64,000 bases of DNA from Protoeuglena noctilucae (taxonomy: Eukaryota): the NCBI GenBank assembly GCA_958009085.1, contig OY253669.1:868001-932000 (forward strand), written 5' to 3'. Below are positions 3,313-59,443 of the stretch, piece by piece. How positions within the stretch are numbered: the first letter of the stretch is position 1; every line of letters starts with the position of its first letter. Under the pieces are notes generated by a model that made no database searches, was not told where the DNA came from, and saw only the letters and a program-made list of their open reading frames with translations. The translations under genes and the position numbers were made by a program.

Positions 3313-5625
3313 TCAACCCCCCGCACCACCCCCCTGTCCCCGGACGTCTCTCGCCAGCTGCTGTTCATCGCCCGCTCCCTGCCTGCCCTCAGCACCCTTT
3401 GCACCCGCCACCGGCACCGGGGCTCCCTTTTCCCTGGCCGCCCGCTCTGCGCTCGCCCGTGCCCGCACATCGCGCAGGCGATCCTCCAGCGCAGACCGCT
3501 CGGGTCCTGACCTCGCGCACGCCTCCCCGACCCCCAGCTGAGACTGCAGGCACCGCTCGTGAGCGGCGAGGAGGCGCGCCCGCATCGCCACGGCCGACCC
3601 GACCGTCTCCCCTGCGGCAGCACGAGCGTAACAAGAGTTGATCACATCACGACAAATCCAAACCACGTCGGTGCCGACACTTCGACGTGTCCCAGCCACG
3701 CCGCACGCACCGGACCATGCGATCATCTGGACGGCAACCCTGGCCTGTGTCTCGCGCTCCTCGCTCCCCGCGGGCGCCCTCACGGACTCGGCCGGCTTGC
3801 CCACCGCCTCCCGCACCGCTGCGTCGATGCTCGCCCAGGCCAGGCCCCTCGACAGCGCCGCCTCCGCCTCCGCCGCCCCGCGCCAGAAACGCGGGCAGTC
3901 CCCGCACGCCGCCGCCGCCTGCGCCAGGGTCATGTGCCCCGCGGCCGCCGCCAGGCACGCCCGGGACGCCGCCAGGGCCAACGTGAAGCGCCGGAGGTTC
4001 CCCGTCGCTTGCCACTTGTCCGCCTCTGCCTCCGCCCGGCGGCAGTCCCTCTCCAGCGGCTGCGAGTGCGACGACGGGCCCTGGGTTACCCACCGCCCCT
4101 TCATCGCCACCGGCAACCAGCTGCGCGGCATGCAGGTCAGCAGAACGTGGTATGACCATGACGGTGCGCTCTCACCTGGAGGAGCGCCTCAGCCACGCCC
4201 ACTCCCTTGGCACGTGCCTCCGGGTCGGGGTGCCGGATGTAGGCCTGTACCGACGCGGCGGCCAGCTGGCGGCACGCGGGGTCCGAGGGCCCCAGGTGCG
4301 CCTGGGTGGCGCGCAGCGCATCCTCCAGGATGGCCGCTGCGGCAGCCGGATGCCCCTTGGTGGCCAGGGCCCGGGCGAGCGCCGAGAGCGACGAGCAGGC
4401 GACGGCGTGGACGTGCAGCTCGTACTTGCCCTGGGCGGTGGCCAGGATGCGCCGGGCCAGGCCCTCCGCGGCATCCACGTCGCCCATGGCCAGGTACATC
4501 ATGCCCATGAGCTCCATCGCCCGCAGCCCGATGGGCCACACCGCCATGCCCTGGTCGTCGATGATCTCCAGCGATCGCGCGAAGTCGCGGCGGGCCTCCT
4601 CGTGCTGCCCGGCGGAGAAGCGCGCCGACGCCAGCGCAAAGAGCGTCTGGGCCGCCTCCGGGTGCGTCGCGCCCAGGGCCTTGGACTGACGGGCGAGGGC
4701 GTCCTCGTACAGCGCAATCGCATCCTGCTCAGCGCAAGACGTTTCCTAACTGGGCGACAGGTGGGGGCCCGTCTGCGCGACGTTGGGCGGGGTGTAGCGT
4801 GCTGTGACCCACCTGGTACTTGCCCTCGCGGACGGCCACCGTGGCGAGCGAGTGTCGCACCCAAGCAACGAAGGGATGGTCGTCCCCGTAAATGTCCCGC
4901 AGCAGCCCCTCCGCCCCGCTCAGCAGCGTACGTGCCTCCGCAAACCGCCCCATCAACTTGCACAGGTCGGCCAGGTTGGCCATGGCCGCCGCGGTGTGCG
5001 GGTCCTCGGGACCGTAGCCCTCCCGCGCCGTCTCGAGGGCCGCCCGCAGCGCCCGCTCCGCGTCCCCGTACTGCTTCTGCGCGGCCGACGCCGCTGCCTG
5101 GTCCGTCAACAGGCGGAAGCGCACCGAGTGGGCGCTCACGGGGTCAGGCGTCTCGCTCATCTGGACACACGGAAGGGATGTCGATCGCGATGGGACTGCG
5201 CGCGCGTCCACATTTCAGATCTCGAGGCCGCGCCTCTGGAAAGGCAGCCCGCGCACCTTGGTTGGCTCCCGCCAGACCTTGCCGTAGTACTTCACGGGCG
5301 ATGAGCCCCTGCCCGTCTGCGCATGACCTGACTCTTGGCCCCAGTAGCCCGGAGGCGCGCTGGATGCGGGCGCAGGCGAGTCGCCGGCCTCCCGGGGCCC
5401 CTCTGATGCACACGTTGCAAAGCCACCGATGCCCACGGCGCCGAGGGATCCCAGCGCGATCCCAAACGCTCTCCACGTAGACACCGTCTCGTTGTTCCCA
5501 TCGCGATAGCTGTGCGCGCAATAACCCGCGGAAGCGGCACACACGGGCCCCACCCAAACTCCGGGCCCTGCCAGGGCCAGCCGGGCACGGAGGGCCGCCC
5601 GGCAAAGCTCCCACACCCTTGACAT
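3313..5625 (-). CDS. TPR-repeat protein (kinesin-light-chain-like TPRs), probably organelle-targeted
   Basis: YGPEDPHTAAAMANLADL, YGDDHPFVAWVRHSLA and LGPSDPACRQLA are KLC-type TPR motifs. The N-terminus is Arg-rich with a hydrophobic segment. Several GT-AG introns. Confidence 0.7.
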
Positions 5626-5934
5626 CGAGGCACGGTGAGTGGGACTGCCGTTCCCGCCGAGAGAAGCAAATGTAGGCAGCGCTGACCATGTTTGCCAGTC
5701 TCACTTGCAAGTTTTCCAGCGGATGACGGCGCTGAGCGGAAATGCATTACTTCTGCGGCATTGCGTGTTGTGCTGCTGACAGGCTGAGCATCAATTATCA
5801 ACATCGGACCCTGCAGTCGGCAGCTAGCTCGTGCCATCTCTGTGAAACAGCGTTTTCCAGCCGCTCAGGGCATTGCTCTCGCTTTTGCAAGGACCTCGCA
5901 CTTGTCAGTGCCTGTGAGATACTGCGTTGGCGAC

Positions 5935-6804
5935 ATGACGCCGTTTGAGGTAAGAACGGCCCGGGAAATTCGAATGTAATGCCTGCGACAGCTGCGCCCC
6001 GCTCCTCGTGCCCGGGGCGATTTGGGCCAGAGGAAGCGCTGTGCATTTGCAACTTGTCAACGAGCGAAGCAGCTCTCCTCGCAGTCGCAGCCGCTGAGCG
6101 TGTACTGCTCCCCGACCCCCTGCGATGAGCCCCGTTACCGCTCTATCGTCCGCGCGTTGCACGACGAGAAGGAGAACATCAATCCAGGTGAGCCACGCGT
6201 GCTTGCGTGAGGACTGGACGCGAAGCTGCCCCTGCAGCCTGTCGAAGCAGTGCCTGGCCCCACTCACGCAGGCTCAGGCCTCCACGCTGAGAGGGCATGG
6301 GACCAGCGACTGCAAGAGAAGGCCGCCCTGTCTCCGCCGGGGTGCTCCTTCGGTCCGATCTCCACCCCGCCACCAAGCGCTCCTGGGAGGCCGCCACTCA
6401 CGGACGTCACGTGCACCGTGCCGGGAACCAGCAAGGCTTCGCATTCCGAGACCGTGCGGCAGCCATTGAGGACGCTCGTTTCCGGAAGCACCACGTGCTG
6501 CGGCGCCGGGGGGTGCGATGCTGCACCCGCACCCGTGCACAGCGCCGTGCACGCGACCTCAGCCGCTGCGGCTGTGCCCACTGCGCTGGGCCGCCCCCGC
6601 CAACAGCACGGGGAGGTCGGGACGCGGGCGGCACCGAGCAAGCGGGGCGCGAGCGGGGGGGTGCAAACGGGGTGAGCATCGCATCACATCGCATTCCGCA
6701 GGGGTTGTGCCGATGGGGCACAACGTAACCCACCCAGACTGCACCCCCGTGCTCCTGCCCGCAGCCTGACTGGCTCGAGCTCCATACTACGGAGCATCCG
6801 CTGA
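5935..6804 (+). CDS. Small disordered protein with KEN box, D-boxes and IR tail (candidate UVI4/OSD1-like APC/C inhibitor)
   Basis: Exons 5935-5949, 6085-6187, 6272-6671 and 6765-6804 are joined by phase-compatible GT-AG introns. Motifs: DEKENINP, GRPPLTDVT, RQPLRTL, C-terminus ILRSIR*. Confidence 0.65.
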
Positions 6805-6995
6805 GATACCATCCTCGACGCTGCGTCACTGAGCTTGCCAGCCGTGCAAGCGCCATTGAAACCGACTCGACGCCGCTGCCAAACTCCGGGACATGGCATG
6901 ACCGGACAATCAGGGCAGCTTCGCACGCGCGCAAGCCGATTGTCACAGGCGGCTACTGCCACGCGCTCTGTGGGCCTGCCTGCGTAGGCGACACC

Positions 6996-9172
6996 TCACC
7001 CCTCGGGCCGGAACAACCCGGCCGCAGGCCCTAAGCCCCCAGTGGGCTGCCCCCCTCCCTCCGCGGCCTTCGCGGCGTCCGACGCTCTTCGCAGTATGTC
7101 CCGCAGGGCGCCCAGCAGCGCGCCCTCCGCCCGCTCTGCTCGAGGATCCAAGGCATCCGCGCCCTCGCCCCTCCGCGCCCACCGGGGCCCCGGCAGGTCC
7201 GGGAGCTCGTCATCATCCTCGTCGCACCGCAGCAGCGCGTCCCCGTCGTCGGCCGCGAGCCCGGCCTCCCCGCCGCCCTCGCCCGCCTCCCCGTCAACAC
7301 CCTCGTTCCCCAGCCCTGCTGAGCTCCTGGCCTGTTCCCTCGCCATGACGTCCCGCGCGGAGGCAACCAGAGAATCGCAGACGTCCTGCAGGGTGCCCAA
7401 GGCTTTGAGCACCGCGGCCCGCACATGCAGGGCGGCTCTGAGGGCGCGGGACGAAGCGAGGCGTTACGGTGGGAGAAAAGAAGAAGAAGAAGAAGATGGG
7501 AGCAATCACAGCCGACAAGACACCCTCGCCACGCACCCGACGCCGCGGCTGGCCCCCTCCCGCCCCCGCGCAGTGCTCCCGTGGCCTGCGGGCTGCGACG
7601 CCGCGGGCGTGCTGGCCATGGGCGATTGTTGGCCGCTGTCACCCGGGGACGCAGCCGTCCGCGAGCGCTTCAGCGGCGGCGGCGTGGCCCCTCCGGGCCC
7701 GGGCAGGTCCTGCGACCAGGGCGGACGCAGAGGGCTTGGCACTCTCTCATCTTGCCAACACAGAAGTGGTGGCGAAGCACTCGACCCGCCGCCCCTCGCC
7801 TGTGCCCGCACGGCCGCCAGCGCCCCCGATCCCTCGAAGTTCTTGCAATCATTGCACTTGCAGTTCTCCGAGCAGAAGATGCCCGCCTGGAAGCACTCGC
7901 AGTACTTCTTGAGGCATCCCGACTTGCGACAGTTGCAGCCCTTGTTGTGCTTGGCGCCCTCGCCCCCCTCGGGCGTCCCCGCGATCTTGGGCCGGAACGC
8001 ATGAGGATTGCGCTCGAGGATGCCTTCCACCGCCTGTGGTGCACCGCAGAGGTGGCCAGCACGTCCTGCCACGCGCAGCGGGTGGGCCAGGCACCGCCAC
8101 AGACGCCACCGCGGCGTCTGAGAGAAGGCATCAACCCACGACTTGACAGGATGGCGCACCTGATGTCGCTTGGACTCGTTCTCCCGGTTATTCAAACAGT
8201 TGACGCAGTTGCACCACTCCGTGCAGTACCTGCCGCTCGAGAAGCACTCGCAGTAGAGTTTGAGACACTTGGAGTTCTGCGAGGACGCGGGGAGAGCACC
8301 AGACTCGGTCGCCACTCGGCCCGGCAGGGTCACATCAGCCTCACTGCGTGACGGGAGCTGCGGCCAGGGGCGGCGTATGCACAGACCTTGCAGTTGCAGC
8401 CTTTCCGGGAGGGCGGGTTCTGCCCCCCCGCGGGACTCGTGCTCGCGCGCGTGGCGCGTCGGAGGGGCGAGGCGGGCGAGGGAGGCACGATGGCCGGCCC
8501 CTGTCCTCGGCTGGTGGACGCCTCAGCCCCTCCCCCCCGCGGCACGAGGTACTGCAGTTGACGCACAGTCGATCGGCGAGGCGTCGCGAGCGCCGTGGGC
8601 GGTGCGGGGGACGGGGGCGGGCGTCCTGTCGCAGTCTGCGGGCAAGGAAGGACTTTCCATGGACCGCTCCGCGCAACGCGAGACGCTCGCGTGCGCACCG
8701 CTCCGGCAAATGATGCGCAGGGTTCCTTCGCAGCTTCCGGCGGCAGAGGCGCCCGCGCAGACCCACCCGCGGGCTCCCTGGGACGCTGGCGTCAGGGCCA
8801 ACTTGGACGTGCAGCCGCGAGCGGCCGGGGGTCGTGGACCCTGGAGCGGCGGAAGGAGGTAGGGGCTCGGAAGATATCGCGACGGGGCGCAGGCTGGGGT
8901 GGCGGGGGCGGCGGGGAAGAGAGGGGCCGCACGACGAGCATCATGCGTTGTCGCGGCGCCTCCCCCGCTTCCGCGCCACGGCGCGTCGATATAGCAGGCG
9001 CACCGCATCCTCAGGTCGCTAAACATCCACATAATGCCCTTCTCGGTCGAAATGTCATTCCAAAATACGAAATCCGCGGTCCGCATCATCCCCCACACAA
9101 CGGGAGCTCTCCCGGCCCGCCGCGGGCTCCGCCGCCGGGGTCGCGCCGCGCCGTCTTGCCTGACTTGCTCAT
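6996..9172 (-). CDS. Tesmin/TSO1-like CXC (CRC) domain protein, LIN54 family (DREAM subunit)
   Basis: Two CXC domains (KGCNCK-NSKCLKLYCECF...; KHNKGCNCRKSGCLKKYCECFQAG) linked by the RNPHAFRPKI hinge. 5' end tentative. Confidence 0.9.
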
Positions 9173-12947: not shown

Positions 12948-15900
12948 TCATGCGAGGTAGTTGTACACAGTCTTGTCATTCGTGTCCCGCTCGAGGAACT
13001 CCCGCTCGATCAGGGACTCGATGCGCTTTTTCAGGTCGGCAGGTTGCACCGTGAACCGGAGCTGGTCGATGAGCTCGGATATGAGCAGCTTGTGCGACTG
13101 CGGGCGCTCACGAAGAGGTCCTTTTGTGTGCATCGATCGCCCCACGCCCCCGCTTGTGACCGTTGCAGCAACCCAACTGGCTCCACTCACCAGGGTCTTG
13201 CGGGCCTTCATGATGCGCACGACGGCCGCGTCAATCTGGTACTGCCTGTCCTGCGCCACGCCCTCGTTGATCTGCTGGCTCTCCTCCTGCACCTCCTTGG
13301 GCTGCACCTGGTTCAGCCGGACGCGGAACTTGTCGCTCGTGAACCCCTCGTTGAACACAAACACGTCCGTGTCCGCCACCTCCTTGCCCTTGGGCTCCTT
13401 GAGCAGCACTTGCATGCTGGGCACGCACGTCAGGCTTTGCAGCACGCGCTTGAGCTCCCCGGCCTCGATCCCCGTCTGCTCGTCCGCAAAAGAGGTAACA
13501 GAAGGTCAGCGGCCTTGCCCCTATCGCATCATATCACATCACCCTCAAACGGCCCCATGGCGACACCGGGTGCCGCACCTGGGCCTGGATTTCCGAGCAG
13601 CTGAGGCGGTCAGCCTCCGAGAAGGCCAGGAGCACGGAGCACTGCAGCTGCGACACGACGAGCTCGCGCGCGCCCTTGCGGAACTGCGCCTTGACCGTGC
13701 AGGTGCCCTGGGACGGCACCCACGAGAGGTTGCGCCCCGAGTGCTTGCTCAGGTAGAAGGACGTGAAGGCCTCCTGGGCGCGCACGAGCTCCGCGGGGAG
13801 CGTGCACGTGGTGGAGGGGTAGCTGGGCCAGTGCCCCGCCGTCAAGACGCTGACGGAGATGTCGACGCCGCTGGGCGACGCCTCGAGGTACTGCGGTGCT
13901 CGCTTGGCCAGGCCCATGAGCTCCCGCGACAGCTCCATGTCCCGGAACATGCCCTCCAGCTTGTTCGTGAACTGCGCCCCGCACTCCTCCTGCGGGCCGG
14001 CACGCGCAGGTGGGTGGCGAGTGACGTGGGTGACGCGCTGCCTTCATCGCACCCCACCATCCCAATGTCAGCCATCTCCAGCCCAGCCCAGCCCAGCCTC
14101 GCCTTCAGCAGGGCGAGCATCTTGCGCTCGGCGTCCTCCGACGAGCTCCGCTCCAGCAGCAGCCGCCTTGCCAGGTGCCGCTTGTAGAAGGCCTCGAACA
14201 CATCCTTGCCTTGCACCAGCCGGAAGATCGACAAGGCGTCCTCCATGCTCTTCTGCGGGAGGGGAGGCTCGGAAGGTGTCCGCGTGTGTCACTCCCTCAC
14301 GCAAGCGGCAACTGCCGAATCGCAACGGGCCGTTGCAAGCATGGAAACGTGCTGTGGTGGGGTACCGCCCCTCCCCGCACCTCGAGCTCCTGGTCCGAGA
14401 TGCGCTTGACACCCGCCCGCAGCTTCTGGTCCAGGAACTTGGCCAGCAGCTCGGCCGGGCGGTTCTGGCGACTGTTGACGGCCGACTCCAGATTGTCCTT
14501 CATGGAGCGCGCGAAGGCCTCGTCGGACGCGAGGCTCTCCCGCAGCGCGGTCAGGAGCGCGGCCCGGAGCGCCAGCAGTCGGTCTACCATGTCCTTGTCG
14601 CGCCCCGTGTCCTGCACTACCTCGGTCCCTCGCTTGCGCACGTACGCGGCCCACGCGTCCCGCAGGCGCCCGACCTCTCCCACGCGCGCCAGCATGGTGT
14701 AGAGCCGCCGCAGGTCCGACACCCGGCCCTCGTCCAGCAGCTTCGCCGCCCCCGCGTCCACCAGCAAGGCCGCGTGACGCCGCACCAGCTCCTCCTCCAG
14801 CACCGAAACCATCGGGCGCCGCGTCGACGCCTCCAGGCACGCTGCGCGAAGGCCACACAACTTGCGGTCGTTTCCCTCGCCAGCGCGTGCGCAGCGACCG
14901 TAGCGGCACCGGCCCCGCACCGCCCCAGGCACGCACTCACCCGCGCACCGCTCCTCCTCCGCCGCCATCTGCGCGTCGACGGCCACGAGGTACCCCGCGA
15001 CGTCCGTGCCCGTGCCCAGCTGCGCGGCAGAGTCGCGCCGATAGTGCTCGCGAGCCCGCGTCAGCACCCGGGGCTCAAGCTCCGGGGCGTACATGCCCAG
15101 CTGCGCGAACATCTTGGTCAGCGTGCGCAGCAGCGCGCGATGGGACGCCTCGCCCTCCCGGTCCCGCTGGACCTCGTCATCCAAAGCCCGGAGGAGGCGC
15201 TCGTGCAGAGGCGCGCGCGCAAGCAGACCCTGGGCCACGAGACGCAGCGTGCGGTCGTGGATCGAATCCGAGACGCCTCCTCGAGCGACAAGAAAGCGAT
15301 CTAGCGCCAGGAAGACGTCGCGCACCAGCCGAGACTGCAGTCCAGGGCACACGAAGGGTGCTTACTTATGCGCCCCCGAGACGACGCGGCGGGCGCGTGG
15401 GGTTCGCGACGATCCGCCCTTTGTTTGCTTGGGCCACTTATTCTGCACCGTGATGGCCCGCGTGGCCCGTCGCCCGCCCGAGTGCCGCGGCCGGGACTCA
15501 CTTGCTCGCAGTGCGCCTCCCAGAGGGCCGCCACCCGCGACAGGAAGGCTCGCGGGTCCTCCGCCGCCGTCTGTTGAAGCGCGTTGAGTCGCTCGTTGAC
15601 GCACTTGTCCCAGAGCGCCATCAGCTGCGGAACGACGGGGGCCAGGTGGGGAAACTCGCGCCCAGTCTCCCCACGGGGCCGCGCCCAGGGGTGATGCGCG
15701 CCACGTTGCAACGAGTCCTCTCATCTCACCTTGGTGAGCACGGAGTCCTGCAGGTGAATCGCGCAGAGGTCCTCCACGGCCCGATAGAGCTCCTCCAGGG
15801 AATGCGACACGGGCTGCGAGTTCTGGACAGCCTCCACAGCGGTCTGCAGCATTCTCCACGTCTTCTGTGAAATCCACAGAAAGCATCCGGAGTTCCTCGC

Positions 15901-16626: not shown

Positions 16627-19600
16627 ATGATCGTAACCAGGGATGCCAGCGTATCCTCTCGCCTCTGCGCTGGCTGCACGTGGCTAGCCCGCCGATGGTT
16701 GCACGAAAAGCCCAGCTACGCGGACAATGACGACGGCATGGCGGGGATGCCAGGTGCGCCGGATAAGCGCAGCGCAAGTCTGGCCACGCCCTCCCGAGGC
16801 CGCTCCCGCTCACCACCCGCGCTGCTGGGTGGGCGCAGGGCACCGACAGCTGCCGACGGAGCTACCTGGCGCGACGGGCCGACAACGGAAGAGGCCAGGG
16901 TCCTACTTGTCCCTCTACGGCCGCGACCTCACGTTGGAGGCGCGTGCGGGGCGCTTGACTCCCGTGGTCGGCAGGGAGCGTGAGGTGTCGCATGTCCTGC
17001 GGGTGCTGATGAAGCGCGAGAAGTCGAACCCCGTCCTGGTGGGCCCCCCTGGGTGAGCGGTGGCTCGCGGGTGCAGGTGCAAGCGCTCGTGTTGGTGTCA
17101 CCTAGCCCAGGTGGACGGTGCACCTTCAGCGTCATCCCAGGGTCGGTAAGACGGCCATCGTGGAGGGCGTCGCGCAGCGCATGGCCCAGGGTCTCCCCGG
17201 CATGGAGGCGATGCGCGTGGTGGCTCTCGATGTGGGCGGCCTGGTGGCGGGGACGCAGTACCGTGGCTCATTCGAGGACCGCGTGCAGGTGCGCTGCTGC
17301 TCGTGCTATCTGACGTGACCAGGACATGCACATTGCACATATGGACTCATCGGTATGCTTTCTGAGGAGAGCAAAGCATGGGCATTGTGCCCGTTCTTTA
17401 CCCATCATAGCAACATGCGTCTTCTACGCCCATGTGGAATCATGGGTATGCTCTCTGAGGTGACCAGGACATGCAATTACGCCTGTAAACCCATCATCCA
17501 TATTACCGCACTGCTCACCCACGCCCAGGGTGTACTGGAGGACCTCGCTGCGTCGCAGGGGGGCAGGTGGTCTTGTTCGTCGACGAGGTGCACTTGCTGC
17601 TGGGAGCCGGGAGCTCAGACGGGGGCATGAACGCAGCCAACCTGTTCAAGCCCGCCCTGTCACAGGGCGGAATGCGGTTCATCGGGGCAACGACCCCGGA
17701 GGAGTGGGCGCAGCATGTGGAGCAGGACGCGGCGTTCGCACGGCGGCTGCAGCGGGTCGCCGTGCACGAGCCCACCCCGGCGGAGGCGACGGCGTGGCTG
17801 ACGCGACTCGCGGGCGTCTACGAGGCGCACCACGGGGTCGCCATTCACCTGGACGTGCCCGCCGCGGCTGTGGAGACCGCCAGGTGTGCGTTTGACGTCG
17901 CACACCGCACACTGTGTGCCTGGCGCCAAAGGCCTTGTCCAGTCCTGCATAGCCAGTCTTATACAGACATGGTGCATCTCCGTCGCAGGCGCTACCTGAC
18001 AAGCAGGTACCTCCCCGACTCAGCGATCGACGTGCTCGACGAGGCGTGTGCCAGAGTGCGCATTCAAGAGGTCCAGGCGACGCCAGGGGCGGTCGCGATG
18101 GGCCCAAGCGTGGGAGCAACGGAGCAACACGTGCAGCCACCGTCGGCGATGCACACCCAGGGGAGCATTCCCTGCCCTGTCCCTGACGCTCGCCCTCCGC
18201 ACGGCCGGGAGGCGCGCGTGGGTGTGGCGGAGCTGCCGCGTCCCTGTCCCCACTGTGCCTTTCCCGTCCCAAGCACACCGTCCTCGCTCATCACCTGCCC
18301 GAGGCGAGGTGGCTGACACGAGCCAAGCAGCTTGGTGCAGCCTAGCACGTCCTGCACCTGACCTCCTCGCCTGCTATCGTGCTGCAAGCCAGTCTGCGCC
18401 CTTACCTCCCGTCCCCCGCAGGTGTGCATGTACCTTCCTGAACACAAACCCCCAGGACCTGGCCCTGGGTGTGTCTGTGCTCTGGAGTAAGGGCATGCGG
18501 CCGCCACAGGCAGGGGTGGCGGATGCACGGGGGCACTCTGGCAACGGGAGCACAGGGGAGGCACAGAGGCGCATGGGGCAAGTGGCACCGGGAGGATCAG
18601 GCGATGCATCGATGAGAGCGGAATGCCATGAAACTGCACGAGACGATGTCAGAGAGCCGAGCGAGGCGGATCAGAGGGCTTCGTCTTCGGGGTCTACGGT
18701 GCAGCAGGCGGCAGCTGTGTCGGGGAGGGGGCGCGTGCCGACAGTGACGGTCGGCGACGTGCTGGCAGTCGCACAGGAGATGACCGGGGTGCCCATGGAG
18801 ACTTGGGCATCAAGAGCGGGCGGTGAGATGGGTGGGGCGTGGGGCCCTGGCCTCGCGGACCAGCTCAGGAGCGCCGTTGTGGGTCAAGACGAGGCGGCGG
18901 AAGCGGTGGCCCAGGCCCTGCGTGTCGGGCAGCTCACGCAGGGCGGGGCGGGCGGCGGGGGTGCGTCGCGCCGGCCGCTAGCTGCGTTCGCGTTGGTGGG
19001 CCGCCAGGGGTGCGGGCGCACGCTCTTGTGCCAGGCGCTCGCCAGGGAGGTGTTTGGGGAAGACGCCGTGGTGCGCCTGAACCTGAGCGAGTACTCTCAG
19101 GCCTCAGCAGTCGCCAAGCTCATCGGGGCGCCTCCGGGGTACGTCGGGTACGGCCGCGGGGGTATGCTGACACAGGCGAGTGCACCCCTAGCCGCTGTCG
19201 GCCTGGCATTGCGGGCGAGCTTGCGACCCCGCTGCAGGCGAGGTGGCACAGTGCATTGCGTCCGCAGGCAATACGCGACCGGCCCCACTCGCTGGTGGTC
19301 CTGGAGAACCCCTGGCAGGCGCACCCGGACGTGCGGAGTCTCCTGGCTCAGGTTCTGCAGAGGGGAGTCCTCACGGACAGCCAGGGCCGCACGGCGGATT
19401 TCTCTCACTGCGTGATCGCGGTGCTGTGCCAGCCGCGCCCGCCACGGCAGTGGGCCTCAGCGGGCCTCGACCAAGCGAGGGGCGCCAGCGCTGGCACTGC
19501 GTCTGTGGCTCGCGTGCCGGGGCCATCCCAAGCCCCGGGGCGACCGGCGGGCATAGGCGCGGCCCCCGTCGCTGCCGACCCCGCGTCTGGGTTCCGCTTG

Positions 19601-28457: not shown

Positions 28458-29732
28458 TCACCACCAGGACTGCTGGGGGCCATACACCAGGGTGGCCGTC
28501 TCGCGCGACGTGTCCACAACCACATAGCAAAAGTTGTTGACGTGGCTGGACGGAAACAGGGTATCGCTGCCCTCGAGGCGCACCACCCGGTACACGACGG
28601 AAAGCACGTCGATGCGGTCCTGGCCCTTGGGCCGAACGACGGAGACCAGGTCCTTGTACATGGCCTTGACCGTGGTCATGTATGGCTCGGCTCGGTCGTC
28701 GTACTGGTTCTGCAGGAAGGGCGCGGTGCTGCGCCTGAGCCCGGCGCGAGGGGCACGCCGCAGCGCCCAGCCGGCAGGGAGGCTCACCATGGCGCCTCCC
28801 AAGACGAGGTGTCTCAAGAGGCAGGCGATGAACTCGGAGGCCTCCCCGGGAGAGAAGAGGTCTGGGTAGTCCGTCTCGTCCCCACGCAGGAAGTACTCTT
28901 GCAAGGCATTGGCGACGGGCACGCCCTGGAACTGGTCGTCCATCACCCGCCGCAGGTGGCCCTGCGGAGGCGGGACCCTGACTTGGCACCGCAAACTGTG
29001 CGCACCGTCCCCAGCAGGGCCGCGCAGTGGGCATCACGATTCGCTTGCCGTGGATGGATGCACGATGGGGGGATCCGTCTCCTCCAGGCGGTCGAAGAAG
29101 GACATAGAGACGACCGTAGCAGGGACGCTCTCGTTGATGACGCGGTGCACGGGGCCTTCCAACGGTCCCCACTGCCCACCCTTGCGCATGACCTGTGGAG
29201 ACCGGTGCACGCACGCCGTCAAGCGCATATCCGCAATCGCAGACGACGAACCCTGATTGGCGATCGACAGCACTCGCCATTTCATCGTCGCCCCGGCAAG
29301 CCCGGGCCGCAGACGCTGTGCGCGACATGCTATCTTTGTCCGGGCGGCCCGCACGGGCGCCGAGCCAATATCAATGCGCTCCCTATGCGACGTGCACGTT
29401 TTCAGCACCGGCAGGCAAGAGGAGCGATGGAAACCACCAGGCGACGCTGAGGCATGGCGCATCACCCGGAAGTCCTGCCGGAAGCCGGGGTCGTTGAACA
29501 TGTCCAGCAGCATCTGGTCCGCGGCCGTCTTGTGATAGCTCCGGTCGTAGCGATAGCGGTGGACCTTGAGATTCGGCAGGAGGCCCCACTTGGTGAGGTT
29601 CGAGGTGACCATGCCATTTTGAAAGGCGCTCTTGCTGGGCGGCACAGGGTGGAAGTGACACGAGCTTGCATCCTTCCCCGACGTCGATGCCTCCTCCACG
29701 GCATCCGCCGCGACGCTGGCGGAATTAGCCAT
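28458..29732 (-). CDS. CFAP300: Cilia/flagella-associated protein 300 (C11orf70, dynein-arm assembly factor)
   Basis: NLTKWGL, VPATVVSMSFFDRL, SEFIACLLRHLVLGGAM-NQYDD, YKDLVSV, HVNNFCYVVVD. Confidence 0.9.
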
Positions 29733-33372: not shown

Positions 33373-36418
<3,046 letters not shown>

Positions 36419-56447: not shown

Positions 56448-59443
56448 TCACAGCTTGCCCTCGTCGATGTACTCCTTCACCGCGATGTCCATGATCTTGA
56501 TCTCCTCGAGCGGCCGCTCGAAGCGGTTGGTCTTGGTCCGCTCAATCACGCCCACCACGTCCATGCCCTTGACCACGCGCCCAAAGACCGTGTGCTTTTC
56601 GTCCAGCCACGGCGTCGGCACCGTCGTGATGAAGAACTGCGACCCGTTGGTGTTGGGCCCCGAGTTGGCCATCGACACCGTCCCCGCCCGGTCGTGCCGC
56701 AGCTGGGGGTGGAACTCGTCGGGGAAGGACCCGCCCCAGATCGACTCCCCGCCCGTGCCGTCCCCGAGCGGGTCGCCCGTCTGCACCATGAAGCCCTTGA
56801 TCACGCGGTGGAACACGATGCCGTTGTAGTAGCCGTTGCGCGCGTGAGTCACGAAGTTCTCCACCGTCCGCGGGCACTCCTCCGGGAACTGCGAGCGGGG
56901 TTGATTGCGGAAGCCCAATCGCGACAGAAACCGGGCAACGCTACCGATTGTTTGTCCAGTAACCACCGCTCCTTCCTGCACGTCCACCTCCCCAGCTGCC
57001 ACCCGCGCCGCTGCTCACCAGCTTGATCCACACGTCGCCGCGGTTGGTGTGCATGACGGCACCCCGGGGCAGCAGCGCCCCGGAAATTTCGTCCACGAGC
57101 CCCGGCACCGCCCCGCTTTCGATCGGCTTCTCGTTGAACACGTCGCGCGACACCAGCGGGTTGTCCAGGTCCTCTGCGGGGGGTTCCCGGCGCGTGAAGA
57201 GGTAAAAACGCTCTTTCTTGAACGCCGTGGCCACCAGGGTCGGGTCCGCCAGCTCCAGCTTGGCCTTCGTGTCCGCCGTGGCTCGCGCAATCTTCCGGCG
57301 CTTGGACGCGGCCACCTGGCCCTGCGCGCGCGGGGACAGAGGCACCGCGTCCCACGCTGATACGACAGGAATCCAAAGCTGAGAAGAATAAGCGATGCTA
57401 CCGCGACAGGTCCTCGCCAGGGACCCTGCGCGGCCATGCCTGGCCGGTCCTGTGGCTTACACACCTGGTAGAGCGCGACCTGGATGAACCGCTCGGTGTT
57501 CTCGACCTTGCCGAGGAGCCGGGACACGCGGTTGGTGACGAGGTTGACGACTTTGATGCCCACGTAGCTGCCAAAGAGGAGGAAGTGACCGGACTCATCG
57601 AACACGCACGTCGGCAGCGGCGCCTGGTCGTCGCCCCCTGCAGCCCACCGGCGGTGGACGTCCCGCTCCACGGCCATCCTGCGGGCGGCAGCTGGCAACC
57701 TCTTTCTCTACCGCCGCTCCCTCCGCCCCTGCCCCGGTGCGCACGCTGCTGCCCCACCGCAGCCGCACCTGTGCCCGAAGTCCAGCGCCCCAAGCTCGAG
57801 CATCTCGCCTCCCAGCCGCTGCAGATCGCTCGACGCCTCCAACGACTCGTTATACACGCGGCGGAGGTGGCCGGACGACACATCAAGCACGCGCACCCGC
57901 AGGTCGGCGCACACCAATGCGATGGTCTCGCCGTCCGGGGAAATGGCCATCGACCACGCGTGCGTCTTGTCCTGCAGGCGGGGGCCACAGTTGAAGAGGT
58001 CGCACAGGCGGTGGGTGGAGGGCGCGAGCGACACCGTTACGTCGTAACCATGCTGGCCTCTTCTGCCCTCCACTAGCAAGCCCAGCCGCACCTTCGCGAG
58101 GCAGAAGAGGTCCGTCTCCATCTTCAGTCGGAACGTGAAGTCCCCCCGGTCCTCTGGGAACTTGCCCATCTTGGGGTCCCATATCTCGATCATGCCCTTG
58201 GTATCTGCGATGGCCAGGCGGTGGAAGGAGCGGGGTGGATAGAGACGATTGAGAGCGAAAGGAGAGCCGCGCGTGCCAGGCCGCCCGCGCACCTGTGCTG
58301 ATGACGACGTTGAAGGCCGGGTCGTAGCGGGCGCAGGTGACGGGCGCCCGGTGCAGGCGGCACTCGGCGATGGCGTCCGGGGAGCCCGACTTGCCGTCGA
58401 TGACGTCAGCGCGTCCCGACTCGGCGTCGAACACCGCCAGGCGCGCGCGGGCCTCGTCCTTCTTGAAGCACCACTCGGCGCACCGGGGCGTGAAGGCCAG
58501 CCGTACCATCCCAATCATGTCGAACATGCCCACGTCAAAGACCTTGAGGGTGCGGTCCTTGGACCACGACACGAGACAGTCGCCGTCCGCCGACACCGCC
58601 ACGCCCAGCACGGGGCCCGGGTGCGCCTGGGGGCCCAAGGGACATGTGGTGGGTGCTTTGCCCAACGCGGCTCAGCATACGTGGGTGAAGAGCATGGCCC
58701 CTGCCCTCACCTTGTAGTCCTTGGCAAATTCAATGCCTTTGCTCTGCTTCTTCCAGAACTTGACGTGCCCGTCCACGCTGCCCGTGATGATAAACTCGTG
58801 GTGGCTGGCGATGGCCAGGCACGACACCGTGTCGCGGTGCATGTAAGAGCGCTCGTACATCTGGGCCGAGGGCAGGTTCTCCAAATACTGCGACTCGTAC
58901 TCCAGAACCCTCCGCTTCTTCCTCTGCGGCGCACGAGCGGGCAGCGAATGAATACGCATGCAGGGATCTGTCGCTCGTGGTCGGCGCGTACGTACGTCGC
59001 AGGCGGCTGCCGCACCTGGGGCTGCTGCGGGCCCTGCTCCTCCCCCTCTCCCTCGTCCCCTGGAGGTGGCATCGGGCCCACATTCTCCTCCTCGTCTTCC
59101 TTGGGTGGCAGCGCGGGCGCGATGTCCTCGGATGCCGTTCCCTGCAAACGCACGGAAAGGCGATGCGTTCCAGCTCAGCCCGTCGCTCGAAACATATTTG
59201 TATCATGCGCGCGGAAGCAGGGCCGGAGGCGCAAACAACGCGCGCGGCAGTGCCTTGGCTCCCACGCTGGGGTGCCTCGGCCTGCGCGTCCCCTCGGAGG
59301 TTCGCGGGCGAGATAAATGCGCTTGCTCGGCGCCTGATCAAGCAAGGAGCGCGCGACATGCTCGCCACCTCGCTCAGGGGCGCGGGACCGACGTCTGGCT
59401 CCTCCTGCGGCGGCGCCGGGCCGACGTCCGGCCCGTCGCTCAT
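56448..59443 (-). CDS. PPWD1: WD40-repeat cyclophilin (PPWD1/CYP71)
   Basis: [17 protein letters not shown] repeats, cyclophilin domain [40 protein letters not shown]. Confidence 0.96.

Follow-up and report, generated by a model that had tools for sequence, protein, structure and literature searches.

A candidate small gene with KEN-box and D-box motifs in a gap between two minus-strand genes of a green alga

The sequence analysed here is a 64,000-nt stretch of DNA (the window), and all coordinates are positions within it. The Elp3 exon found in the window is nearest to those of core chlorophytes (84-87% identity with Chlamydomonas, Haematococcus, Chromochloris, Trebouxia and Coccomyxa) and shares 80-82% identity with land plants; judged by these identities, the host is a core chlorophyte. 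The candidate occupies a gap of 1.1 kb that is bounded by two minus-strand genes, a TPR gene on one side and a gene of TCR/CXC (LIN54/TSO1-like) type on the other, and the 185-amino acid spliced model under study lies on the plus strand (Table 1). In the putative promoter region that precedes it, the GC content drops to 0.55, compared with 0.65-0.73 in the surroundings. This region also carries two exact copies of GTTTTCCAGC (5711-5720 and 5852-5861), a 10-mer that is found nowhere else in the window.

Table 1. Features of the candidate locus, in window coordinates
Feature	Coordinates	Strand	Description
Putative shared promoter and 5′ UTR	5704..5934	+	Separates the candidate from the minus-strand TPR gene
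Proposed exon 1	5935..5949	+	ATG plus four codons, donor GAG/GTAAGA; at five codons, too short for testing
Proposed intron 1	5950..6084	+	135 nt; other in-frame acceptors at 6072 and 6090
Exon 2	6085..6187	+	103 nt, 34 codons plus 1 nt; KEN box; edges CGCAG/ and /GTGAGC
Proposed intron 2	6188..6271	+	84 nt; another acceptor, at 6250, adds 7 residues
Proposed exon 3	6272..6671	+	132 whole codons; both D-boxes
Competing last intron	6638..6701	+	64 nt; GC donor GCAAGC, acceptor CCGCAG
Long imperfect hairpin	6645..6760		End of exon 3 and donor paired with the C-rich tract near the intron 3 acceptor
Proposed intron 3	6672..6764	+	93 nt, a typical length; donor GGG/GTGAGC, acceptor CTGCCCGCAG
Proposed exon 4	6765..6804	+	1 nt, 12 codons and stop (6802-6804); ends ...SIR; needs splicing of intron 3

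The ends of RNA contigs flank the gap at 5703, where the contig of the upstream gene stops, and at 6844. Over the candidate itself, marine metatranscriptome contigs span 6260-6429 and 6472-6637 at a depth of about 3, and no splice joint is seen in them; the intervals 5704-6259, 6430-6471 and 6638-6843 are uncovered and uninformative either way. The run that supplied these contigs is not the one whose contigs flank the gap; its cover is limited to 6260-6637, which corresponds to the span of exon 3 without the flanking genes. A further RNA set gave no cover. The contig that begins at 6260 reaches 12 nt into intron 2 as proposed, and would be unspliced if the acceptor is the one at 6271, or wholly exonic if the acceptor is the one at 6250. 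One contig terminates exactly at 6637. Because these RNAs are unstranded, unspliced and of low depth, they could represent UTR, pre-mRNA or DNA carry-over. Transcript-derived proteins are on record for both of the other two genes tested from this host.

A sequence-only reading of this DNA had proposed a hidden four-exon gene at this location. As letters, the proposal holds: splicing of 5935-5949, 6085-6187, 6272-6671 and 6765-6804 produces 558 nt that encode 185 amino acids followed by a stop codon. All three introns have GT..AG borders, with donors GAG/GTAAGA, CAG/GTGAGC and GGG/GTGAGC, and each acceptor reads CGCAG. These sites fit the set of eight local introns, whose lengths range from 78 to 273 nt, and in which seven of eight donors are G[TC][AG]AG or GTGCG and seven of eight acceptors are GCAG. 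Three of the eight are of the GC-AG type, a class described as a hallmark of E. huxleyi (PMC4028052); a haptophyte origin, considered on this ground, was rejected in view of the Elp3 identities. The frames of exons 2 and 3 are both devoid of Met codons, and an ATG further upstream is therefore required; the ATG and donor of exon 1 are common to all of the top splice models enumerated. Intron 1 lacks a coding signal in every frame, intron 2 has an in-frame stop codon at about 6211, and the best acceptor 3′ of exon 2 is the one at 6271 (pyrimidine-rich with GCAG), which opens the exon 3 frame of the 185-amino acid model. We infer that splicing unites the four exons in a translated message in which exon 3 is read in this frame.

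The 3′ end of the model can be drawn in several ways. Provided that intron 3 is spliced, the protein ends in SIR just before the stop codon, as had been read from the sequence. The donor hexamer of this intron, GTGAGC, is also the donor of the verified intron 3 of CFAP300. If the intron is retained, a TGA within the donor stops the protein at 173 amino acids (...VQTG). Use of the competing intron at 6638-6701 would yield 183 amino acids with an end other than IR (...LLPAA). Its donor hexamer is the same as that of the transcript-supported CFAP300 intron 2, and its length falls below the range of the local introns. The C-terminus has at least three plausible forms, of which the IR tail is one, and that tail hangs on a single predicted intron.

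A spliced frame that stays open over this length is within chance expectation. When 5704-6900 was dinucleotide-shuffled 200 times, 63 of the shuffles contained a frame from ATG to stop, joined at strong splice sites, of 558 nt or more, and the real minus strand of the same region permits a spliced frame of 696 nt. For this reason the other half of the proposal, that the four exons constitute a gene, is not established by the frame itself.

The codon usage of exon 2 sets it apart. None of 500 nulls of its own composition reaches its score by either of two codon measures, the sliding z values are 3.3/2.9 and 3.3/2.4, and GC3 is 0.853. The yardstick for these z values is CFAP300, within whose transcript-verified exons they range from 2.0 to 5.5 and within whose introns from about 0 to 1.7. 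The antisense frame that has the same third codon positions as exon 2 is interrupted by a stop codon. Exon 2 is therefore as coding-like as verified exons, and is the only clearly coding-like segment of the model.

Exon 3, which carries both D-boxes, is indistinguishable from composition-matched sequence. In the frame of the 185-amino acid model, 48 of 500 and 77 of 500 own-composition nulls equal its score on the two measures, z lies between 0 and 1.4, and GC3 is 0.78; in the same codon test, four of five controls taken from neighbouring genes reach significance. The codon score of exon 4 is likewise at the level of its null (150 of 400). An apparent coding signal in exon 3 (4 of 400, with a null trained on non-coding DNA nearby) was discarded because it disappears under the own-composition null, which marks the signal in the first codon models as an artefact of GC content. 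Furthermore, a minus-strand frame at 6264-6683 has the same third codon positions as the exon 3 frame, and GC3 is consequently blind to strand here; neither an acceptor nor a homologue was found in support of minus-strand coding of that interval. There is a methodological lesson in these data. DNA with a GC content of 65-72% makes long spliced frames cheap (about one third of shuffles), and exon 2, which convinces, is told apart from exon 3, which does not, only by codon tests that respect the frame and are calibrated on verified exons of the locality.

Searches with exon 3 uncovered no credible relative. A phmmer search with its 132 residues against 1.84 billion representatives gave two matches at E ≤ 0.001, both spurious and both to repetitive proteins, one aligned in 14 stretches and the other in 7; BLASTP against the former gave E = 2.4. 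In a word search, none of 163 candidates reached E ≤ 0.01, and among about 15 billion proteins none on record carries exon 3 in the frame of the model. The ESM Atlas returned bacterial hypothetical proteins (best value 0.84) at a recognition of 1342, which is under the useful range. Exons 2 and 3 have no match in Pfam, 13 ORFs from all frames of 5798-7034 gave Pfam matches at noise level only (E of 0.06 and 0.16), and two matches to miRNA precursors in an Rfam search of 5200-7400 (E of about 0.9, far below the gathering scores) are likewise noise. Three metagenome loci that had been considered as relatives share with the candidate only CCGAGGCD, which is itself the search pattern. This match is lost under composition-based statistics, one of the loci has a stop codon inside it, and the likeness was rejected as chance.

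When the products of 10 ORFs were looked up exactly, two were on record, both antisense to the model (6410-6946 and 5908-6267, minus strand), and these apparently stem from ORF-based gene callers applied to genomic contigs and carry no information on the real gene. A strain variant corresponds to a G>A change at 6646, which would replace Gly with Ser in the frame of the model; as a single change it has no statistical power.

Could the region be devoid of a plus-strand protein-coding gene altogether? It would then consist of the promoter of the TPR gene together with DNA of the convergent CXC gene, either its 3′ UTR or intergenic sequence. The open frame, the motifs described below and the sites that resemble splice sites would be the work of chance in DNA of 65-72% GC, picked out by a motif-seeking reader. 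We consider this unlikely, even though it agrees with the frequency of long frames in shuffled sequence and on the opposite strand, with exons 3 and 4 being indistinguishable from their nulls, with the unstranded, unspliced and thinly covered RNA, and with the lack of homologues and of any recorded protein in the frame of the model. It also agrees with the acceptor tract of intron 3 being the hairpin complement of the end of exon 3. Against it stands exon 2, whose signal equals that of verified exons by both measures and whose good splice sites lie exactly at its edges. The RNA run that spans the exon 3 region without the flanking genes is a second point against it, and the distribution of motifs in the window is a third.

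These motifs are present as they had been read. The KEN box occupies residues 34-36 in the context DEKENINP (KENINP, 6169-6186), and the two D-boxes are RPPLTDVT, which begins at residue 79 (6388-6411), and RQPLRTLV, which begins at residue 102 (6457-6480). If exon 2 joins exon 3 in-frame, the KEN box lies upstream of both RPPLTDV (79-85) and RQPLRTL (102-108). The several SP/TP sites that had been listed amount to five S/T-P dipeptides, none of which conforms to [ST]Px[KR]. Residues A, P, G, S and T together make up 59% of exon 3. The KEN box is flanked by P at +3, E at -1 and D at -2; the consensus given in PMC3690534 has P at +3, with D or N most frequent at -1.

The extended forms of these motifs are locally rare. 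In a scan of all six frames of the window (127,996 residues), KEN occurs three times, [DNE]KENxxP once and RxxLx[DE][ILV]T once. The single KENxxP and the single RxxLx[DE][ILV]T both fall in the 185-amino acid model, 74 codons apart, where the extended patterns were defined post hoc, after the sequence had been seen. With the composition of the real proteins of the window, the numbers expected per 185 amino acids are 0.0004 for KENxxP and 0.013 for RxxLxD[IV]. The fact that one connectable frame unites the window's sole KENxxP with its sole strong D-box counts against the absence of a gene.

A second alternative grants that exon 2 belongs to a real small gene and disputes the link to the APC/C. 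Such a gene would encode a disordered protein, specific to the lineage and with no assigned role, either because exon 2 is joined to another downstream frame or exon, such that the D-boxes are lost, or because the motifs are non-functional. The uneven coding signal, solid in exon 2 and not in exon 3, speaks for this alternative. In addition, a different plus-strand frame (mod 0) outscores that of the 185-amino acid model on the composition measure at 6340-6500 (z of 1.7-2.9), and a CAG acceptor at 6306 would open it. This acceptor is purine-rich, unlike the eight local acceptors, and the synonymous-codon score of the mod 0 frame is lower (-0.161 versus -0.059 per codon). As for the motifs, about 0.3% of proteins with the composition of those in the window are expected to carry both a generic KEN box and a generic D-box by chance. 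The share of proteins that are true APC/C targets is of the same order. Here the KENxxP and RxxLxDV contexts are far rarer than the generic motifs, which speaks for function, and on balance we rate a gene with no APC/C connection as rather doubtful.

The explanation that we prefer, tentatively and with less than even confidence, is that the locus holds a real small gene whose product is a disordered protein recognized by the APC/C. The gene would be a plus-strand unit that gene callers have overlooked, with exon 2 at its core and a KEN box bearing P at +3. Its product would be a disordered protein of 173-192 amino acids, depending on minor splice variants, that also carries the two D-boxes. 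Most likely, the KEN box and the D-box would each engage their own receptor on the WD40 domain of CDC20/CDH1, and the protein would thereby become an APC/C client; we infer each of these binding steps. On the simplest reading, it would be a substrate, whether securin-like or of another kind, whose destruction falls in mitosis or G1. We hold it less likely to be a pseudosubstrate by which the receptors are blocked.

Such a pseudosubstrate inhibitor had been suggested from the sequence alone. The KEN box and D-box would fill the co-activator receptors and the C-terminal IR would dock on APC3. The order of KEN box, D-box and C-terminal [IM]R in the spliced model does match the description of OSD1, and also that of Mes1, as given in PMC3406007. 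The host is a green alga, only 10 of the 1981 six-frame stop codons of the window are directly preceded by [IM]R, and intron 3 has a donor of a verified type, a typical acceptor and a typical length. Nevertheless, we think this function very unlikely. The tail rests on a predicted intron whose retention, or replacement by splicing at 6638-6701, where an RNA contig ends, gives other C-termini; exon 4 has no coding signal; and every doubt about exon 3 carries over. Moreover, a KEN box with a D-box is equally suited to ordinary APC/C substrates such as securin.

The land-plant APC/C inhibitors UVI4 and OSD1/GIG1 have GxEN in eudicots or KEN in monocots, a D-box of the form RxxLxx[LIVM] and an MR C-terminus (PMC3406007). 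Binding to CDC20/CCS52 that depends on the D-box and the tail, together with inhibition of the APC/C, is a further mark of this family, and OSD1 has been assayed in mouse oocytes as a heterologous system. The candidate, if spliced as modelled, resembles them in being short and without a known fold, in its motif order, in its two-residue [M/I]R end and in belonging to the green lineage. It differs in that its tail is IR, created by a predicted intron, rather than MR, and in the absence of detectable sequence similarity. Its motifs are also placed nearer to the N-terminus, at 34, 79 and 185 of 185 residues, compared with 80-83, 104-110 and 242-243 in OSD1. The sequence-only reading had offered deep homology with UVI4/OSD1 as one possibility. 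This is unsupported, because the phmmer search with exon 3 produced only spurious repetitive matches and no similarity to any plant protein; sequence homology is a mark of the family, described as 'well conserved in all plants'.

The pseudosubstrate inhibitors of fungi and animals resemble the candidate at the level of motifs only. Emi1 and Emi2 have a zinc-binding region and an RL tail. Together with Mes1 and Acm1 they combine a D-box with KEN-type motifs and are described as having separate origins by lineage (PMC3406007, PMC3690534); Mes1 has an MR tail (PMC3406007) and Acm1 an A-motif (PMC3690534). We give very little credence to a lineage-specific chlorophyte pseudosubstrate inhibitor, with its three motifs ordered as in OSD1/UVI4 and Mes1 and without a detectable relative. 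If it were true, then either the plant family would reach back to green algae and have diverged extremely, or the design would have been invented independently for a third time.

Is the candidate a securin of the PATRONUS/RSS1 family, which would hold separase until the APC/C destroys it? Securins, among them plant PATRONUS1/2 and rice RSS1, are small, disordered and poorly conserved proteins whose N-terminal KEN and D boxes bind CDC20, and the plant family has been traced to green algae (PMC6690013). Work on Chlamydomonas still invokes a 'hypothetical securin analog' (PMC9448001). The candidate, if spliced as modelled, shares the small size, the disorder and the N-terminal position of the KEN and D boxes, and securins are fast-evolving proteins. 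What it lacks is the W-A-[KR]-[DEG]-G-[VI]-E patch, whose Glu is a candidate pseudosubstrate residue and which is reported in PMC6690013 to be extremely well conserved across Viridiplantae. A regular-expression search of all six frames of 5601-7000 did not find this patch; the nearest approach in the candidate is ...AWDQRLQE... (only W and the E at +6), and an isolated WAR occurs in another frame. An IR/MR tail, for its part, is not described for securins, and the sequence searches matched no protein. Membership in this family is therefore highly improbable.

Among the papers searched, no APC/C inhibitor or securin is named for green algae beyond the PANS/RSS1 trace. If the preferred explanation is confirmed, a chlorophyte client with KEN and D boxes would provide a handle on the timing of anaphase and exit in multiple-fission cycles. 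An IR-tailed inhibitor, if true, would mean that the three-motif design recurs across kingdoms.

A hairpin lies across the last intron. Located at 6645-6760, it is an inverted repeat with 30-nt arms that are 77% complementary, and its predicted minimum free energy of -70.3 kcal/mol (z = -3.23) is matched by only one of 200 shuffles. Because the C-rich acceptor tract of intron 3 complements the G-rich end of exon 3, this tract may be no splice signal. If the candidate did act as an inhibitor, the same hairpin might decide whether the IR tail is produced.

The plus strand of this region was proposed by the sequence-only reading to hold a four-exon gene whose product, carrying a KEN box in exon 2, two D-boxes in exon 3 and an IR tail, would inhibit the APC/C as a pseudosubstrate. 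As letters, this description is accurate: the joined segments give 185 codons that include DEKENINP, RPPLTDVT, RQPLRTLV and the ...SIR end, along with five S/T-P sites. Methionine is absent from the frames of both exon 2 and exon 3, and the five-codon exon 1 is therefore required. The open frame by itself is not beyond chance. Under a splice rule set that captures 7/8 local donors and 7/8 local acceptors, 63 out of 200 dinucleotide-shuffled versions of 5704-6900 contain a spliced frame that runs from ATG to stop over 558 nt or more, and the real minus strand of the same stretch permits one of 696 nt.

Coordinates of the candidate exons, neighbouring genes, antisense ORFs on record and local GC-AG introns
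Feature	Coordinates	Strand	Observation
Exon 1	5935-5949	+	
Exon 2	6085-6187	+	nulls reaching score: synonymous-codon 0/500; full codon model 0/500
Exon 3	6272-6671	+	nulls reaching score: synonymous-codon 48/500; full codon model 77/500
Exon 4	6765-6804	+	nulls reaching score: synonymous-codon 150/400 (local non-coding null)
TPR gene	ORFs up to ~5700	-	RNA contig stops at 5703
TCR/CXC (LIN54/TSO1-like) gene	6996-8522	-	two Tesmin/TSO1-like CXC domains; Pfam TCR E = 2e-23
Antisense ORF "protein"	6410-6946	-	179 aa, 6 contigs
Antisense ORF "protein"	5908-6267	-	120 aa, 4 contigs
GC-AG intron	28962-29048	-	donor among GCAAGC, GCGAGG, GCGAGT
GC-AG intron	13990-14102	-	donor among the same three
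GC-AG intron	19176-19267	+	donor among the same three

Eight local introns served as the reference set: three from P0005, a 278-aa CFAP300 protein on record whose source contigs do not exceed 2.2 kb and whose sequence matches the window exactly across the CFAP300 exons, and five inferred from Pfam coordinate continuity in the genes for cullin, ClpB and Elp3. Their donors are GTGATG, GCAAGC, GTGAGC, GTGCGG (twice), GCGAGG, GCGAGT and GTGAGA, their lengths range from 78 to 273 nt, and 7/8 acceptors end in GCAG. The candidate sites (donors GTAAGA, GTGAGC and GTGAGC; acceptor CGCAG all three times) and intron lengths (135, 84 and 93 nt) are consistent with this set, in which GTGAGC is a verified donor. 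GC-AG boundaries occur in three of the eight, one with transcript-derived protein support and two inferred from Pfam continuity, which is an unusually large share for a green alga. In E. huxleyi, a haptophyte, GC donors are reported to be in the majority (PMC4028052).

Codon usage divides the proposed gene. A codon model trained on 1,939 codons from Pfam-aligned stretches picked the true frame in 17/17 leave-one-out tests. Against nulls that preserve each segment's own composition, exon 2 is convincing as a coding exon, whereas exon 3, with both D-boxes, is not; exon 4, compared with local non-coding DNA, also scores like its null. Exon 3 had appeared coding-like (4/400) against a null from local non-coding DNA, a GC-content effect that is gone under the own-composition null. 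Of five control segments in neighbouring genes, four are significant; CFAP300 exon 1, verified by transcript, is one of them, as are parts of the TPR and CXC genes that lie outside their domains. Sliding-window z values lie at 2.0-5.5 in verified CFAP300 exons and at about 0-1.7 in the introns of that gene, compared with 3.3/2.9 and 3.3/2.4 for exon 2 and 0-1.4 for exon 3 in the proposed frame. Another plus frame at 6340-6500 reaches 2.6-2.9 on the composition measure, but has a lower synonymous-codon score. Low-complexity coding DNA can, however, score as low as exon 3 does; the first 50 CFAP300 codons reach 0.003 per codon. We judge that a plus-strand gene containing exon 2 is probable, and that its joining to exon 3 in the proposed frame is evenly balanced. 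That the locus holds no gene at all would fit the chance-level open frame and conflicts with the exon 2 signal, and we consider it unlikely. Such gradings, here and below, are judgements, not computations.

The IR tail is present only if intron 3 (6672-6764) is removed. Its retention brings a TGA inside the donor into frame and yields a 173-aa protein, and an alternative GC-AG intron, 6638-6701, yields 183 aa with a different end. An imperfect but stable hairpin (6645-6760; MFE -70.3 kcal/mol, z = -3.23, reached by 1/200 shuffles) spans the proposed intron, whose 5′ and 3′ ends form its two arms, and the adjoining genes are convergent. Rfam returned only noise-level miRNA-precursor matches for the hairpin. 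This structure could aid splicing of intron 3; the C-rich "acceptor tract" could equally be the mere complement of a G-rich run. The hairpin may act as a splicing aid or a small-RNA precursor, or it may be due to chance. The full proposal of an APC/C inhibitor with an IR tail, which needs this splice in addition to exon 3, is in our judgement very improbable.

RNA run X1, a set of marine metatranscriptome contigs, covers 6260-6429 and 6472-6637, and its contigs give no readable joint, loose end or strand. The first includes 12 nt that the proposed model assigns to intron 2, and would be wholly exonic with an alternative acceptor at 6250. The second terminates at exactly 6637, immediately before a GCAAGC identical to a verified local GC donor; the assembly graph may have broken there at an alternative splice site, or the agreement may be coincidental. 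Two protein searches among about 15 billion sequences found no protein with exon 3 in the proposed frame. Transcript-derived proteins are on record for both of the two other genes tested in the host organism, so the lack of an exon 3 record argues mildly against a spliced mRNA that is well expressed. Among ten ORF products looked up, two are on record, both antisense; these appear to be artefacts that ORF-based gene callers produce on GC-rich eukaryotic DNA. A strain variant differs by one residue, corresponding to G>A at 6646.

Motif occurrences were counted in the 127,996 six-frame residues of the window, with expectations per 185 aa from the make-up of real proteins. KEN occurs 3 times (expected 0.009), RxxLxx[ILVM] 207 times (0.45), RxxLxD[IV] twice (0.013), and [IM]R precedes 10 of 1,981 stops (0.005 for a protein ending in [IM]R). 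Given a scan of many windows, this generic trio of KEN, D-box and [IM]R end is unremarkable. The extended contexts KENxxP (expected 0.0004) and RxxLx[DE][ILV]T each occur once, in the candidate itself, and are rare, but their definitions were set after the sequence was seen. The KEN consensus of He et al. has P at +3 and D or N at -1 (PMC3690534); the candidate agrees at +3 but has E at -1. In OSD1, according to Cromer et al., a GxEN/KEN box (80-83), a D-box RxxLxx[LIVM] (104-110) and an MR tail follow in the same order as in Mes1, and the D-box and tail matter for CCS52A1 binding and function (PMC3406007). The candidate's order agrees, as had been claimed; the comparison covers motif order. 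The PATRONUS/RSS1 securin family reaches green algae and conserves a W-A-[KR]-[DEG]-G-[VI]-E patch (PMC6690013); this patch is missing from the candidate in all six frames of 5601-7000.

The suggested deep homology to UVI4/OSD1 found no relative to build on. A word-based search gave 0/163 candidates at E <= 0.01, and Atlas and Pfam searches returned no relative or domain. Searching 1.84 billion representatives with phmmer gave two matches, neither counted as a relative: a repetitive protein (BLASTP against it, E = 2.4) and a 3,994-aa protein aligned in seven stretches. Three metagenome loci have only a search pattern in common with the candidate. Even the nearest relatives of Elp3 share only about 87% identity; the collections searched therefore lack close genomes, and an orthologue of a disordered protein would not be expected to show. 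Homology is not supported by these comparisons, and any analogy is putative. A role as APC/C client, whether substrate or inhibitor, is conceivable but somewhat doubtful.

The candidate sits in a gap flanked by two minus-strand genes. The last ORF of the convergent TCR/CXC gene ends at 6996, but an RNA contig of this gene reaches down to 6844, which leaves about 40 nt to the stop proposed for the candidate. Its CXC domains are of the DNA-binding type found in LIN54/TSO1 cell-cycle transcription complexes. In the GC-poor stretch separating the divergent TPR gene from the candidate lie the only two copies in the window of the 10-mer GTTTTCCAGC (5711-5720 and 5852-5861, spaced by 141 nt), from which the likeness extends to 20 nt at 80% (5711-5730 and 5852-5871); this repeat may be a promoter element. 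Just past the start codon, the proposed intron 1 contains AACGG (5954-5958) and TTCGAA (5969-5974), which correspond to the cores of the MSA and CHR elements of plant cell-cycle promoters.

The window has a GC content of 60-74% and contains conserved eukaryotic genes for a cullin, a ClpB-type AAA protein, Elp3, a DDX1-like SPRY-DEAD helicase, an aminotransferase, a cyclophilin and CFAP300, the last of which marks the host as a flagellate. Its Elp3 exon is closest to core chlorophytes (84-87% identity to named Chlamydomonas, Haematococcus, Chromochloris, Trebouxia and Coccomyxa proteins), compared with 80-82% for land plants. Low-depth marine metatranscriptome contigs match the window DNA at 100% identity. 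The window includes 200 N of assembly gap, the first at 34828, within a stretch bearing a protein-kinase ORF. At 56451-58671 (-), a cyclophilin-domain ORF is preceded on its own strand by a WD40 ORF, and the pair presumably represents a PPWD1-type WD40-cyclophilin gene.
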